Below, piece by piece: positions 6,641-15,633 of a DNA stretch of 42,081 nt (within the stretch, counting starts at the first letter, position 1; each line of letters starts with the position of its first letter). This stretch comes from a virus. Taxonomy: Duplodnaviria > Caudoviricetes. Position numbers and translations under genes: made by a program. The notes under the pieces were generated by a model. That model was given only the letters and a program-made list of their open reading frames with translations, was not told where the DNA came from and searched no databases. The stretch spans positions 1 through 42,081 of the IMG/VR virus record IMGVR_UViG_3300046786_000240. The stretch is one strand, 5' to 3'.

Positions 6641-7308
6641 GCGAACAATCGACAGGCGCACTGGTGCCCAGCAGTGGCGGCAGCGTGTTCTCCGGCATCC
6701 AGGCGTTCGAGGATGCGCAGCGGATTGCGAAGGCGCTGGCCAGCAGCACGCTGATCCCGCCGCAGTTCCAGGGGCAGCAGGGCTTCGCGAACTGCCTGGT
6801 GGCGCTGGAGATCGCCAACCGGATGCGGATGAGCCCGTTCCAGGTGATGCAGAACCTGCACATCATCCACGGCCGCCCGAGCTGGAGCAGCCAGTTCATC
6901 ATCGGCCTGATCAACGGGTGCGGCCGGTTCAGCCCGCTGCGCTACGAGATGACGGGCAGCGGCGACAGCCTGGCTTGCTACTGCGTGGCCACCGAGCACG
7001 CCAGCGGCAATGACCTGAAGGGTCCGGCCGTGAGCATGGCGATGGCGAAGAAGGAAGGCTGGGCGACGAAGAGCGGCAGCAAGTGGCAGACCATGCCCGA
7101 GCTGATGATCCGCTACCGCGCCGCGGCCTTCTGGGGTCGGCTGTACATCCCCGAGCTGCTGGTCGGCATCCAGACCGAGGAGGAGGTGGTGGACGTGGAG
7201 CCCGTCACGGTGCGCCCGGCCGTGGAGCAGCTGAACGCGAAGATCAAGCAGCCGGCGGCGGAGCCGGTTGAGGTGGTGGAGGCAAGCGATGCAGATGAAA
7301 TCTTCTGA
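6637..7308 (+). CDS. RecT/Beta-like single-strand annealing protein
   Basis: Follows RecE-like gene; NCLVALEIA..MSPFQVMQNL..IHGRP, SKWQTMPELM motifs; acidic tail. Confidence 0.8.
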   Translation: MSEQSTGALVPSSGGSVFSGIQAFEDAQRIAKALASSTLIPPQFQGQQGFANCLVALEIANRMRMSPFQVMQNLHIIHGRPSWSSQFIIGLINGCGRFSPLRYEMTGSGDSLACYCVATEHASGNDLKGPAVSMAMAKKEGWATKSGSKWQTMPELMIRYRAAAFWGRLYIPELLVGIQTEEEVVDVEPVTVRPAVEQLNAKIKQPAAEPVEVVEASDADEIF

Positions 7309-7519
7309 GCCCGGATACCTGCAGCCACGCGAGCTGGCCGCGCGATGGCGAGGTGTCGTCACGCTGAGCACGCTCGATAACTGGCGCAGCCAGAACCGCG
7401 GCCCGAGGTTCGTGAAGATCGGAGGCCGTGTCCTGTATCCCGTCGCCGAGGTAGAGGCCTACGAGGCTCGAAACCTGCGCGGGATGCCCAACAATCCACC
7501 TACCCAACCGAGACCATGA
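7289..7519 (+). CDS. Excisionase-like/AlpA-type HTH protein
   Basis: YLQPRELAARW..STLDNWR..GPRFVKIGGRVLY; GGAGG RBS. Confidence 0.75.
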   Translation: MQMKSSEPGYLQPRELAARWRGVVTLSTLDNWRSQNRGPRFVKIGGRVLYPVAEVEAYEARNLRGMPNNPPTQPRP

Positions 7520-7842
7520 GCTTCAAACTGAACCTGGCAATCTTCAAGTCCACCAAGCCCGACAGCAAGGTGGACTTCAGCGGCCGGATGAACATCAAGC
7601 CGGAGGATCTCGATGCGCTGTGCGCGTTCGTGCTGAGCCAGCCGGTTGACCAGTACGGCAGTGTCCAGGTGCCTGTCAGCGGCTGGAAGAAGCAAAGCAG
7701 CAACGGCACGGCCTACGTGAGCGCGGTGGCGCAGCCTCCCCGCGACTGGGTGCCGCCCGTCACCGCTCAGAGCGCTGCCGAGAGCCTTGCCGCGGCCACC
7801 GATGGCGTGGTGACCGAGATCACTGAGGCCGATCTGTTCTAG
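7516..7842 (+). CDS. Putative ssDNA-binding protein
   Basis: Beta-rich 108 aa ORF in the recombination operon ending in acidic-aromatic tail EADLF. Confidence 0.5.
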   Translation: MSFKLNLAIFKSTKPDSKVDFSGRMNIKPEDLDALCAFVLSQPVDQYGSVQVPVSGWKKQSSNGTAYVSAVAQPPRDWVPPVTAQSAAESLAAATDGVVTEITEADLF

Positions 7843-8044
7843 GGAAGCCCATCAGCTCGCATTCGAGGCGGGCGATCTCATTGACGGCCTGCTGCAGCAG
7901 CTGCTGCTGGTAGCAGGCCTGCTTGAGGAGAGCTGCAGCCATAGCGCCCGCATCCTTGCTTGCCAGCAGGGTGCGGGCTTGTTTTTCGATCTCAAACTGT
8001 TGCTCTGGCGATAGCTCCACCGCCATCCACTGTCCGAAGTTCAC
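7820..8044 (-). CDS. NblA-like helical hairpin protein (putative phycobilisome degradation adaptor)
   Basis: ELSPEQQFEIEKQARTLL matches the NblA LSLEQQF motif; two-helix size of about 70 aa; GTG 8044 or ATG 8026 start. Confidence 0.5.
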   Translation of the reverse strand: MNFGQWMAVELSPEQQFEIEKQARTLLASKDAGAMAAALLKQACYQQQLLQQAVNEIARLECELMGFPRTDRPQ

Positions 8045-9630: not shown

Positions 9631-9917
9631 AGTCACACCAGCTGGACCAGCAGCGCGCCGACATGATGGAAGCCCTCTACGAACGGAGTGGCCGCGATCA
9701 GCTGCCCTACGGCCATCCACTGCGCAGCACCTATACCGGGCTGTGGGAGGAGTTTGCGCTTGATCTTGCCGCCAACTTCCGCGACACCGACTACCCCGAG
9801 ATGCTCGCCCGCGTGGTGCGCGCCATGGATGCCACGGAGTCCGTGTTCAGCCAGAAGCAGGCGCAGCAGGCGATCGAGGTGTGCCGCCAGCAGCTGCTCG
9901 GAGACAAGTGGCGATGA
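9627..9917 (+). CDS. Hypothetical protein
   Basis: ATGA overlaps on both sides. Confidence 0.65.
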   Translation: MKSHQLDQQRADMMEALYERSGRDQLPYGHPLRSTYTGLWEEFALDLAANFRDTDYPEMLARVVRAMDATESVFSQKQAQQAIEVCRQQLLGDKWR

Positions 9918-10537
9918 GCGTTGAGCTGATCCACTGCACGCCTGATGCTGAGGCGTTGATCGTGAAGATGGCCAGGGTGAGCAACCCGGCCAATGCCGAC
10001 AATCAGGCCACAGCACCACGGCTGCTGCGGTATCTGATCCGGCACCGGCACTGGTCGCCATTTGAGATGGCCAGCCTGTGCCTGAAGATCGAAACCGAGC
10101 GCGATATAGCGGCACAGATCCTGCGGCATCGGTCGTTCAGCTTCCAGGAGTTTTCGACCCGCTACGCCGTCACCGGCAGGGCGCAGGCGCCACGCTTGCG
10201 CCGGCAAGACACGGAGAACCGGCAGAACAGCTTCGACGATCTGGACACGACAGCGCAGCAGGCATGGGGCAACCTGCTGAGCGATCACCTCACGCGATCC
10301 CATGCGCTCTACCAGCAGCTGCTGGAGCAGGGCATCGCCAAGGAGACTGCTCGCCGGATCCTGCCGCTCTGCACCCCCACCACGCTCTACATGATGGGCT
10401 CGCTGCGCTCGTGGCTGCACTACATCGATGTGCGGACGGATCCGGCAACGCAGCTGGAGCACCGCGAGATTGCGCTGGCCGCGCGCCAGATCTTCACCGA
10501 GCAGTTCCCCACCATCGCGGAGGCCGCCTTTCCATGA
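9914..10537 (+). CDS. thyX: Flavin-dependent thymidylate synthase
   Basis: HWSPFE, RHRSFSFQEFSTRY signature, KETARRILP, TQLEHRE. Confidence 0.95.
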   Translation: MSVELIHCTPDAEALIVKMARVSNPANADNQATAPRLLRYLIRHRHWSPFEMASLCLKIETERDIAAQILRHRSFSFQEFSTRYAVTGRAQAPRLRRQDTENRQNSFDDLDTTAQQAWGNLLSDHLTRSHALYQQLLEQGIAKETARRILPLCTPTTLYMMGSLRSWLHYIDVRTDPATQLEHREIALAARQIFTEQFPTIAEAAFP

Positions 10538-12468: not shown

Positions 12469-12660
12469 ATGCAATACATCCTCCGCATCGGCCCGTGGCA
12501 CGTCGGGCCGTTTCCGACCCACATCGGTGCGCAGCACTTCGCCGAGAGCCACGGCTGCGATGACTACACCCTCATCCCGGTCGATGATCCGGCTGAGGCA
12601 CCTGGTCGCATCCACCGGATGCGCATGGCACCGCTGCGGCATCCGATGCTGCGCGAATAG
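12469..12660 (+). CDS. Small hypothetical protein
   Basis: 63 aa ORF; stop codon lies inside an attP arm repeat. Confidence 0.6.
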   Translation: MQYILRIGPWHVGPFPTHIGAQHFAESHGCDDYTLIPVDDPAEAPGRIHRMRMAPLRHPMLRE

Positions 12661-12671
12661 TGCGCGAATGG
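12649..12671 (+). repeat. attP arm-type repeat, copy 1
   Basis: CTGCGCGAATAGTGCGCGAATGG identical to 12900-12922; tandem 11-mers. Confidence 0.85.
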
Positions 12672-12710
12672 CGCTCCGAGCTGCTCCGCCGCCTGCTGGC
12701 AGCCCTTGAC

Positions 12711-12723
12711 TAAGTGCTTGATT
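12711..12723 (+). promoter_or_regulatory. IHF binding consensus in attP
   Basis: TAAGTGCTTGATT matches YAANNNNTTGATW. Confidence 0.65.
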
Positions 12724-12736
12724 TCTCGGGAGATTT

Positions 12737-12781
12737 TGGTGCCCAGGGGCGGAATCGAACCACCGACACTGCGATTTTCAG
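12737..12781 (-). other. attP core: 3' part of tRNA-Phe(GAA), anticodon loop to CCA
   Basis: Minus strand CTGAAAATCGCAGTGTCGGTGGTTCGATTCCGCCCCTGGGCACCA with anticodon loop, T arm, acceptor strand and CCA; no 5' half; adjacent to integrase. Confidence 0.9.
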
Positions 12782-12899
12782 CCGACTTTGGAGGCCTCAC
12801 GGCGGTTCACGGAATCTCACTAAAGGTCCGATTCTGCGCTGCTTTTCCGGTTGACCTTCTCCCGCTGATACACGCAGAATCCCGGCCGTTCGCGCAAAT

Positions 12900-12922
12900 C
12901 TGCGCGAATAGTGCGCGAATGG
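12900..12922 (+). repeat. attP arm-type repeat, copy 2
   Basis: 23-bp identity to 12649-12671; extra inverted copy TTCGCGCA at about 12889-12896. Confidence 0.85.
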
Positions 12923-12930
12923 AGAGGGGC

Positions 12931-14031
12931 ATGGCGAAGGAGTGGCAGGCCGATCGGAAGGTGCCCGGCCTCGGGCTGATGGTGCTCGATTCCGGGGTGC
13001 GCACCTACTACGTGCGCTACAGGGAGCCGAGCGGCAAACAGCAGCACCACAAGATCGGACGGGCTGGCGTGATCAGCCTCACCACCGCCCGCGAGGAGGC
13101 GCTGAAGCTGCTCGGTGACGTTGCCCGCGGCATGGCGCCCACCACTGCGCGCCAGCAGCTCAGGCGCAGCCCCACCATGCAGCAGCTGTTCGAGCGGCTT
13201 GATGCCGAGCACTATCCGAAGCTCCGGCCGAACACCGCCACCGGCTACCGCGTCCTCTGGCGCCGCCACATCCTGCCGCGGCTCGGGAGCAGCAAGGCCG
13301 CGACAATCACCAGCGCCGATGTGATCGACCTGCTCGGCCAGCTGCCGCGCATCCAGGCGAACCGCACGCTGGCGGTGCTGCGCAAAGCCTTCAACCTGGC
13401 GGAGCTGTGGGGCATCAGGCCGCAGAACACCAACCCGTGCCACAAGGTCACCACGGGCAACAGCGAGCGCAAGCGGCGCCGCTACCTGACGCGCGAAGAG
13501 CTCCAGCGGCTGCTGGCTGCCTTAGATCGCTTCGGCATCACCCGCGTGCGGTGGCGGTTCGCGCAGCTGATCCGCCTGCTGCTGCTCACCGGCTGCCGCG
13601 TTTCAGAGATCAAGGATGCGCGCTGGGAATGGGTGCAGGGTGCTGTGCTGGTGGTGCCGGCCGATTGCCATAAGACGGGCGCCGATGGCAGCGATCGCCG
13701 CGTGCAGCTGCCCCCGCAGGCGCTGCAGGTGCTCGAGGAGCTGCACGCCAAATCGAACAGCGAGTGGATCATCCAGGGCGATGGCGATGGCCACCTGATC
13801 GGTTACCACCGGATGTGGGCGCAGCTGCTGGAGGCCGCCAAGATCGAGAACCTGCGCGTCCACGATCTCAGGCACAGCTTCGCCAGCCTTGGCCTGAGCG
13901 CCGGGCTGAGCCTGCCGCAGATCGGCGGCCTCCTCGGCCACGCCAGCCCGCAGACCACGCAGCGCTACGCGCACCTGATGGATGAGGCAGCAGCCGGCAT
14001 GGCTGCGAGGGTGGCGGCGCTGATCCGCTAG
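12931..14031 (+). CDS. int: Tyrosine integrase with P4-type arm-binding domain
   Basis: PGLGLMV..G.RTYYVRYR..IGR arm domain; TGCRVSE, HDLRH, LLGH, RYAH catalytic motifs; RBS before 12931. Confidence 0.95.
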   Translation: MAKEWQADRKVPGLGLMVLDSGVRTYYVRYREPSGKQQHHKIGRAGVISLTTAREEALKLLGDVARGMAPTTARQQLRRSPTMQQLFERLDAEHYPKLRPNTATGYRVLWRRHILPRLGSSKAATITSADVIDLLGQLPRIQANRTLAVLRKAFNLAELWGIRPQNTNPCHKVTTGNSERKRRRYLTREELQRLLAALDRFGITRVRWRFAQLIRLLLLTGCRVSEIKDARWEWVQGAVLVVPADCHKTGADGSDRRVQLPPQALQVLEELHAKSNSEWIIQGDGDGHLIGYHRMWAQLLEAAKIENLRVHDLRHSFASLGLSAGLSLPQIGGLLGHASPQTTQRYAHLMDEAAAGMAARVAALIR

Positions 14032-14550: not shown

Positions 14551-15633
14551 TCAGTAGTCCCAGCGCACCCTAGGTCCGCCCTTGCGGATGCCAAGGTGCA
14601 CAAACCCCTTCGGTGCGCCGTAGCCGAGCGAGTGCGGCCAGGTCTTGTCGCACCAGTCCTGCACGGCGTTGATGTTGGCGCCGTCGATGTAGAAGTCCAC
14701 CGCGCCCACGCCGATGCCGTCGTAGAGGTGCTCAGAGCTGCTGGCGCCACCCACCGAGCGGTTGACCGCTGGCGGCCGGTAGCCGGAGGTGATCACCACC
14801 GGCTTGCCACCGAACTGCGCGCGCACCTTCTCGAGGAACTGCGCCAGCTTCAGCGCTGTGTCGCACTGGTGCTGATGATCGAAGCGCCTTGCTTCCTGGC
14901 CTAGCGCAAACTCACCTGCTGTGATGTGCGGCGTGATCTTCTGGCTGAAAGGGCTCTCCGGCGTGAACATCGCGGAGATCGGCCCCGTGGTCTGCCGCTC
15001 GCGACCCCACAGGTCACCTTCTGCGATGCGGCGCCGCTTGAGGCCGGCCTCCACGTTGGTGCCGGGGTTGCGGTAGAGCAGCAGGGCATCGGGCACACCC
15101 GGCCAGTCCTTCTCGCGCAGGCGGCGGCTGATGGTCTCGAAACCCTTGGTGCCATAGAACGCCGAGCCGAGGTTGTAGGCGAAGGAGATCAGCGCGCACT
15201 TCTGCGCATCGGTCATCTCCACCCAGTAGGGGATGGCGGTGCGCAGCTTCTCGCCGATGCGATCCACCTCCTGCCGCAGCAGCAGGTCAGCCTCGATCGC
15301 GTTGATCTTGTCGCCTTTGCTGACGGCGCGCCCGTCGTTGTAGCGCGTTGTCCCGTAGCCGATCGTCCACGGTGCGCCGCCGCTCAGCGGGTCGGGATAG
15401 GCCTCGAGGTGGCAGCCCTCGAACTCCTTGATCAGCTTCAGCGCTGGCGCGAGGTCCGCCTGCTTGCCGTCTTGGCTCCATGTGTTGAACCATGCCCGAT
15501 CGCGGCGCATCGCTGCCGCGTAACCGTTCACGGCGAGATCCTGCTCGAGCTGCTGAATCGCGGCTGCCTGATGCGGCAGGCTCCGGTAGTAGCGGAACAG
15601 CTGCTCGATCGTGATCGGCGCGGCGTTGGCCAT
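14551..15633 (-). CDS. Endolysin: GH24 lysozyme + peptidase M15
   Basis: EFEG..AYPD..WTIGYGTT, GLKRRRIAE; ITSGYR..N..VGGA..SEH, AVDF, FVHLG. Confidence 0.9.
   Translation of the reverse strand: MANAAPITIEQLFRYYRSLPHQAAAIQQLEQDLAVNGYAAAMRRDRAWFNTWSQDGKQADLAPALKLIKEFEGCHLEAYPDPLSGGAPWTIGYGTTRYNDGRAVSKGDKINAIEADLLLRQEVDRIGEKLRTAIPYWVEMTDAQKCALISFAYNLGSAFYGTKGFETISRRLREKDWPGVPDALLLYRNPGTNVEAGLKRRRIAEGDLWGRERQTTGPISAMFTPESPFSQKITPHITAGEFALGQEARRFDHQHQCDTALKLAQFLEKVRAQFGGKPVVITSGYRPPAVNRSVGGASSSEHLYDGIGVGAVDFYIDGANINAVQDWCDKTWPHSLGYGAPKGFVHLGIRKGGPRVRWDY

Follow-up and report, generated by a model that had tools for sequence, protein, structure and literature searches.

The window analysed here is the whole 42,081-base record of a tailed phage (IMG/VR record IMGVR_UViG_3300046786_000240), and it holds an intact cassette for site-specific integration, in which a tyrosine integrase gene is preceded by a phage attachment site (attP) built on half of a tRNA gene. 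The attachment site is of alphaproteobacterial type, and the genome, judged by its genes, belongs to the pool of the Synechococcus siphoviruses S-CBS1, S-CBS3, and S-LBS1; the conflict between the two is real. The features of the cassette, including a consensus site for integration host factor (IHF), and of the genes on either side are as follows.

12469..12660, plus strand: open reading frame (ORF) of 63 amino acids (aa), left flank of the cassette slot, adjoining both filled and empty slots
12649..12671, plus strand: left arm repeat, two tandem 9-bp units, 100% identical to 12900..12922 over 23 bp
12711..12723, minus strand: IHF consensus site, 13 bp past the CCA end of the tRNA
12737..12781, minus strand: attP core, 3' half of an alphaproteobacterial tRNA-Phe(GAA), with exact matches in GTDB
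12775..12781, minus strand: anticodon loop, predicted 7-bp strand-exchange region, where identity to the host tRNA starts
12851..12880, plus strand: sigma-70-like promoter match upstream of the integrase (consensus scan alone: 9/12, 0.2 expected)
12889..12896, minus strand: third arm unit, inverted, read from the sequence and also present in relatives
12900..12922, plus strand: right arm repeat, directly 5' of the integrase start
12931..14031, plus strand: tyrosine integrase, 366 aa, with PF13356, PF14659, and PF00589
14028..14546, minus strand: deoxycytidine triphosphate deaminase, right flank of the slot, above the cut-off of TIGR02274; best phage matches S-CRES1-3 at 48-50%

The 45-bp core begins at the first base of the anticodon loop and ends with the encoded CCA. 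An exact search found it at least 120 times in GTDB genomes. By title, 116 of the 120 matches listed are alphaproteobacterial (Hyphomicrobiales, Acetobacteraceae, Rhodospirillales, and others), three are unnamed proteobacteria, one is an Actinomycetes metagenome-assembled genome (MAG), and none is cyanobacterial. These matches bear out the initial annotation, which had described a 45-bp tRNA-Phe 3' core ending in CCA, had likened it to alphaproteobacterial rather than cyanobacterial tRNA-Phe, and had named a perfect match to Synechococcus/Cyanobium tRNA-Phe as one of the findings that would overturn its reading. One and the same tRNA-Phe 5' half precedes the core in 108 of the 120 matches listed, and the identity between phage and host tRNA-Phe ends one base before the anticodon loop. 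Relatives with a short core retain just this loop and a few flanking bases. The crossover is predicted to lie within the 7-bp loop. The only picocyanobacterial attachment site seen, the tRNA-Met site of P-SS2, differs from the fMet cores found in the window's family.

The arm repeats on the two sides of the core are identical throughout, as first described, and are predicted to be the arm-binding sites of the integrase. The left repeat is conserved across the family and also provides the stop codon of the 63-aa ORF. The IHF consensus reported at the outset is present and is the sole match in the window, where 0.15 would be expected per genome and 0.001 per 290 bp. Among 34 distinct spacers of the family, a count that leaves out two chance matches without an integrase, 29 have their best IHF-like match 13 bp beyond the CCA. 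Over all 34, the best match has no mismatch in 9 spacers, one in 9, two in 14, and three in 2. Sites with at most one mismatch thus occur in 18 of 34 spacers as compared to 62 of 3600 shuffles. A statement in PMC4132750 gives IHF as absent from cyanobacteria. Dankookia and 1 of 14 controls scored above the cut-off of an IHF-alpha model, which does not decide the cyanobacterial case.

All six catalytic residues of the integrase are present (R223, K248, H311, R314, H337, and Y346), and its arm-binding domain, PF13356, scores 47.8 bits. The initial label of a P4-type integrase is apt for the domain layout and too narrow for the family: NCBIfam PRK09692 gives 21 bits where 434 is the cut-off, and identity to enterobacterial and Pseudomonas phage integrases is 26-29%. 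The enzyme would work like P4 Int but is not classed in the P4 Int family in the narrow sense. Its closest cellular counterparts are alphaproteobacterial island integrases (38-41%), which have the same layout at tRNA-fMet, tRNA-Lys, and tRNA-Thr genes and occur in 37 of 301 Acetobacterales genomes; the best 25 plasmid matches are of this type as well. The integrase is about 15 residues shorter at its N terminus than most relatives. Its reading frame is open from a TTG at 12706 through the core to 12930 (441 aa), and similar long frames occur in Acetobacterales loci. This extension is probably not translated because a strong ribosome-binding site precedes the ATG at 12931.

Searches anchored on the integrase gave 80 viral loci (80 retained out of 110 confirmed in the second of two scans; integrase identity 44-99%). 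In 79 of them the integrase sits among genes of the window's phage family, in one slot, and none of the 80 integrases has a stop or frameshift, three being ended by contig ends. For the window integrase paired with each of the four nearest relatives tested, the ratio of nonsynonymous to synonymous substitution rates (dN/dS) is 0.05-0.08 at dS 0.21-0.24; nine further close pairs give 0.05-0.16 and distant pairs 0.27-0.48. The exact 45-bp core of the window recurs in 14 of the 80 loci, beside integrases of as little as 60% identity (locus L185). Across the relatives the cores represent Phe, fMet, Lys, Thr, Asn, Arg, and Gly isotypes, and the isotype tracks the integrase tree. All 125 T-stem pairs in 25 distinct cores are standard, as compared to a mean of 85.5 and a maximum of 98 in shuffled sequences; five of these cores come from full phage tRNAs, and the search pattern drops decayed cores such as that of L141. 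Two fMet cores of relatives are identical to attachment cores beside Acetobacterales integrases. These data show that the cassette is intact and that the integrase, the core, and the IHF-like site are under selection, which rules out the vestigial module that the initial annotation had considered.

The cassette is also optional within the family. The slot is visible in 75 of 80 loci anchored on the endolysin; it is filled in 22 of 47 loci with an endolysin of at least 80% identity and in 1 of 28 more distant loci, and the endolysin tree implies at least 11 gains or losses of the cassette. This tree and the integrase tree are quick and midpoint-rooted, and neither was used for the direction of transfer. 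Empty slots are clean, and that of L329 retains 7 bp of an arm. Twelve related loci combine, 150-320 bp upstream of the integrase, a short core with a complete tRNA of matching isotype immediately beyond the arm:

L126, L201, L159, L163, L164, L166, L168, L176, L177, L178, L180: short core and full tRNA, Lys
L162: short core and full tRNA, fMet

This layout appears at several places on the integrase tree, and the three tRNAs that were folded form cloverleaves. Separately, the Thr, Gly, and Arg cores of L179, L181-L184, and L186-L188 are inverted relative to the window core, with the same arms. Also recurrent in relatives are tRNA-like elements of two kinds, which have a T loop and odd anticodon arms and are detected only at a relaxed ARAGORN threshold:

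L164:4532-4602, L174:8768-8838, L178:3137-3207, L180:8942-9012, L184:9119-9189: tRNA-like element, first kind
L121:7988-8058, L131:7739-7809: tRNA-like element, second kind

The genes around the cassette point elsewhere. They were compared with four Synechococcus and three alphaproteobacterial phages. The portal protein is 62-64% identical to the S-CBS1/3/S-LBS1 pool versus 39% to alphaproteobacterial phages (Roseobacter phage CRP-823), and the tail tube is 46-71% identical to Synechococcus phages and has no match in the alphaproteobacterial phages. The small terminase (57-59%), endolysin (71%), and gp25 (82%) match S-CBS1/3/S-LBS1, and the primase (58%) and helicase (47%) match S-LBS1. The capsid is less distinctive (34-41% to Synechococcus phages versus 36% to CRP-823), and the large terminase, at 48% to both groups, does not discriminate. 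Matches at the DNA level to 8-16 kb are cyanophages in 35 of 42 records. Two genes beyond the slot bear on this comparison:

14551..15633, minus strand: endolysin, GH24 lysozyme and M15 peptidase, 71% to S-CBS3 and 97% to L320
16145..16297, minus strand: basic peptide of 50 aa, PHROG 516, matched in 217 phage records

By name, 187 of these 217 records are Synechococcus, 22 Cyanophage, 6 Prochlorococcus, and 2 "Marine". Protein names in the endolysin clusters indicate no host. The endolysin, the peptide, and the structural genes therefore uphold the initial description of a picocyanophage-like genome, and the grouping of structural genes with alphaproteobacterial phages, named as a possible objection, is not what we find. 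One element of that description, an NblA-like ORF at 7820-8026, failed all tests: the NblA identity was rejected for want of any link in Pfam, PDB profiles, or Foldseek, with only a generic two-helix model remaining. Viral NblA is treated in a passage of PMC12695635. Several other markers do not separate the hosts. The 784-aa tail protein at 16801-19155 matches Pelagibacter, Roseobacter, and Methylophilales phages as well as cyanophages, the methyltransferase is not host-specific, no tail gene is clearly associated with integrase presence, and Atlas searches returned generic families only. Tetranucleotide correlations overlap between cyanophages (0.40-0.62) and alphaproteobacterial sets (0.21-0.59). 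Shine-Dalgarno motifs precede 12 of 47 genes in the window; the counts are 44 of 169 for cyanophages and 96 of 174 for the three alphaproteobacterial phages (p = 0.0005 for the window versus the latter), with 0.33-0.57 in pieces of alphaproteobacterial chromosomes. The GANTC ratio of 0.73 (z -2.3) is intermediate, alphaproteobacterial chromosomes spanning 0.42-1.04. Overall the composition leans weakly toward cyanophages.

Contact with picocyanophages has been recent. L320 (L320:2192-11077) is a mosaic with an empty slot, in which tail-tip proteins of S-CBS3 type (70-92% to S-CBS3) are joined to a 2.3-kb lysis block that is 92.6% identical to the window in nucleotides (nt). In L345 a 1.2-kb lysis block is 90-91% identical in nt to integrase-bearing relatives, and the best family for its sigma gene is the cyanobacterial RpoD type, below cut-off. 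The endolysin of S-CBS3 nests within the family tree, and the tail tube of the window is nearer to that of S-CBS1 (71%) than to those of two close relatives (63% and 68%). Moreover, five integrase-bearing loci of a 55-kb sister group encode a ribonucleotide reductase, NrdJ, for which all 11 readable named cellular matches are cyanobacterial (70-72%):

L164:6920-9921, and L166, L179, L184, L186: class II NrdJ beside ThyX, closest to chromosomal copies of Cyanobium/Synechococcus, in the 55-kb sister group with the cassette

These data show recent gene exchange with S-CBS3-type phages. The cross-phylum capture first suggested would be old and shared by the whole family, not an isolated event.

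How would such a cassette be used? In the established lambda/P4 model of tyrosine integrases, the integrase would bridge both arms and the core while host IHF bends the left arm. The strands would be exchanged where the host tRNA-Phe gene encodes its 7-bp anticodon loop; Williams is said to have defined in 2002 a class of integration sites at tRNA anticodon loops. A whole tRNA-Phe would be restored by the phage 3' half at the junction distal to the integrase gene, and the cell would therefore survive. Integration would pay only where a pairing tRNA-Phe 5' half and IHF are available, which would make an alphaproteobacterium the host of this step. A shared cell, most simply a picocyanobacterium, is required for the recent exchange with S-CBS3-type phages, so that lytic growth and gene swapping would take place at least partly in Cyanobium/Synechococcus cells. 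Because both alphaproteobacterial integration and a shared picocyanobacterial cell are indicated, we favor a lineage that passes through picocyanobacteria and alphaproteobacteria and uses its cassette in alphaproteobacterial cells, a reading we consider evenly balanced between holding and failing. The two hosts could be reached by one virion or be split between tail variants of one recombining population. No CI-type immunity repressor was found among the window ORFs scanned, although divergent repressors can escape detection, and integration may therefore be loosely controlled or short-lived. PF00717 is likewise absent from the five relatives searched, and neither an excisionase adjoining the integrase nor a recognisable repressor is seen in the window cassette. 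A bolder form of this reading, which we think unlikely, is that freshwater picocyanobacteria are lysed by the same virion that also gets into their alphaproteobacterial partners, integrating there at a tRNA gene and waiting; the variants with a short core and full tRNA would have freed the cassette from the need to match the host 3' half.

Several observations weigh against a two-host lineage. A pattern for the host junction attL (a whole tRNA followed by the left arm) found nothing in 2.9 million IMG/VR and 241 million JGI metagenome records; the pattern covers some D arms and spacings only, and its 3' part was validated on 41 loci and 47 viral contigs. A control pattern without the 5' half gave 47 viral and 55 metagenome matches, 42 of the latter being chance, and the 13 true metagenome matches are all free attP sites, none preceded by a tRNA D arm. 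Logan contigs break at the 45-bp core, which makes phasing across it impossible, and no RNA holder was among those listed. That the phage integrates in a heterotrophic partner, as first suggested, would fit best, although neither collection yielded an attL junction. The integrase clade is missing from 301, 201, and 201 genomes of alphaproteobacterial orders (two draws overlapping; best 41%), and the endolysin from 401 alphaproteobacterial genomes; for the portal, the highest identity in such genomes is 38%. A common Lys core and one Phe variant had no match in 121 + 121 and 91 alphaproteobacterial genomes, and some cores are therefore not copies of a sampled host tRNA. Of the IHF-like sites, 14 of 34 carry two mismatches and 2 carry three, and L347 has kept its attachment site with only an 81-aa piece of integrase. 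On the cyanobacterial side, no RpoD-type sigma gene was found in the window, and neither this gene nor NblA was found in any of 27 integrase-bearing genomes. The chromosomal Shine-Dalgarno and GANTC ranges given above weaken the compositional signal. The contrast with picocyanobacterial tRNA-Phe, which presumably would not pair with the window core, rests on the absence of cyanobacteria from the 120 matches listed and on general background. To our knowledge, productive infection across phyla is also rare.

Some of these points would be accommodated by a host range confined to picocyanobacteria, with brief or rare integration through the 7-bp anticodon loop common to tRNA-Phe genes and with inherited alphaproteobacterial features. 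This explanation is possible, if rather improbable. It agrees with a backbone that is picocyanobacterial in all its evidence, with the lack of a lysogen in the collections searched, and with the lack of a CI-type repressor, and passages of PMC8776855 show that S-TIP37 and P-SSP7 integrate with no lysogeny. In L164 and L166, moreover, the Cyanobium-type NrdJ coexists with a short core and full tRNA, a layout in which no match to the host 3' half is needed. However, it leaves unexplained why the acceptor and anticodon strands of the core can still pair with alphaproteobacterial 5' halves when the integrases have diverged by 40%, why T stems are paired, and why the IHF-like site keeps a fixed distance. 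In addition, T7-like cyanophage attP sites perfectly match cyanobacterial tRNA-Leu according to the same part of PMC8776855, and the P-SS2 site is unlike the fMet cores of the family.

An exclusively alphaproteobacterial host (for example freshwater Acetobacteraceae, Hyphomicrobiales, or Rhodospirillales) would reconcile all of the attachment-site evidence, and attP-to-tRNA identity is treated as a host marker in passages of PMC3861242 and PMC4490671. The cyanophage likeness would then reflect ancestry and the small number of cultured freshwater alphaproteobacterial phages. The lack of cyanobacterial sigma and NblA genes in the 27 genomes, the mild GANTC shortfall, and the matches of the 784-aa tail protein to Pelagibacter, Roseobacter, and Methylophilales phages are in keeping with this, as is one protein of the integrase clade (NDG47492.1, 90% to the L194 integrase) that is named from a Rhodospirillales MAG; it lies on a 26.8-kb contig and may be a binned phage. 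However, such a host range requires very recent exchange (90-93% nt) with phages that have S-CBS3 tails or a cyanobacterial sigma gene, and it sits poorly with the position of the S-CBS3 endolysin inside the family tree, with a tail tube closer to S-CBS1 than to those of two close relatives, with the Cyanobium-type NrdJ in sister phages, and with the lack of a prophage in the alphaproteobacterial samples searched. We regard it as distinctly unlikely. A defunct, remnant cassette or a chimeric contig is very improbable: half of the close relatives lack the cassette, L329 retains its arm fragment, and the L347 integrase is shortened, yet the 80 uninterrupted integrases and the low dN/dS of close pairs oppose a remnant, and a chimera is unlikely because both cassette joints are shared by five other contigs at 90-93% nt, and depth is alike on the two sides of the core in two runs, possibly those of the source samples. 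No sign of the chimeric assembly raised by the initial annotation was seen; depth in run X5, which adds up related phages at 85% likeness and was not used, drops steeply from the flanks to the integrase.

Other genes of the window bear less directly on the host:

7298..7519, plus strand: small helix-turn-helix protein, HTH_17 at 23.5 bits, under the cut-off of 27
7820..8026, minus strand: conserved two-helix ORF, family-wide, with an invariant C-terminal motif and without a known match
9914..10537, plus strand: ThyX, above the cut-off of TIGR02170; the DNA-level matches listed are Synechococcus phages

The first of these is a possible candidate for a recombination directionality factor. ARAGORN and Rfam detected no full RNA gene in the window. 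Relative to codon-shuffled controls, GGNCC (0.31) and CCNGG (0.43) are strongly avoided in the whole genome and GATC is enriched (1.38), which may point to host restriction systems. Homologues of A12, annotated as an integrase in S-LBS1, occur at L180:15184-16008 and L384:225-878 (73% and 82%), close to genes for tail fibres and lysis. Since L180 carries one alongside its attachment-linked integrase, A12 may be something other than a lysogeny integrase.

Cross-phylum host range is often claimed for phages and seldom shown. Here, two host markers that normally agree, attP-to-tRNA identity and genes in common with cultured phages, conflict throughout a family that is abundant in fresh water, and each seems to reflect the present and not ancestry. 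Either marker alone can therefore misassign hosts. Since the junction sequences, the candidate hosts, and variants with and without the cassette are known, the question of a host in each phylum becomes testable. If a dual-host virion exists, the family would have its lytic host in one phylum and its storage host in another. We found no paper on a cyanosiphovirus family with alphaproteobacterial attachment cores in the literature, judged on titles and the starts of abstracts, with subscription papers and supplements outside that search. The parts of the cassette are already known; its pairing with the S-CBS gene pool, under selection across a family, is new.

Lambda/P4-like systems of proteobacterial prophages and islands with the tRNA anticodon loop as their target, represented by the Acetobacterales island integrases of L203-L217, share the arms flanking a tRNA 3'-half core, the IHF site, the arm-binding and catalytic domains, the order of gene and attachment site, the fMet, Lys, and Thr targets, and two identical fMet cores. 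Identity to them is only 38-41%, however, and the window clade is found almost only in one cyanophage-like slot (79/80). S-CBS1, S-CBS3, and S-LBS1 share head, neck, tail-tube, lysis, and early genes at 35-82% identity, whereas the window genome is larger, has another tape measure and a lambda-like tail tip, and lacks the RpoD-type sigma. S-CBS1 and S-CBS3 have no integrase, and that of S-LBS1 is 21% alike and without a tRNA-type attachment site (S-LBS1 as covered by a part of PMC6157547). S-TIP37, P-SSP7, and P-SS2 resemble the window in pairing an integrase with a tRNA-type attP and, in the passages drawn on from PMC8776855 and PMC2784084, in having no known repressor; their sites match the tRNAs of their own cyanobacterial hosts, whereas that of the window matches another phylum. 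Finally, the short core and full tRNA of the 12 related loci are shared with tRNA-dependent lysogeny as described in a part of Guerrero-Bustamante and Hatfull 2024 (PMC10865867), although lysogeny in our family is putative and the window itself has an ordinary 3'-half core and no full tRNA. These relatives extend the tRNA-dependent attachment layout beyond the actinobacterial and Lactobacillus phages named in that part of the paper.

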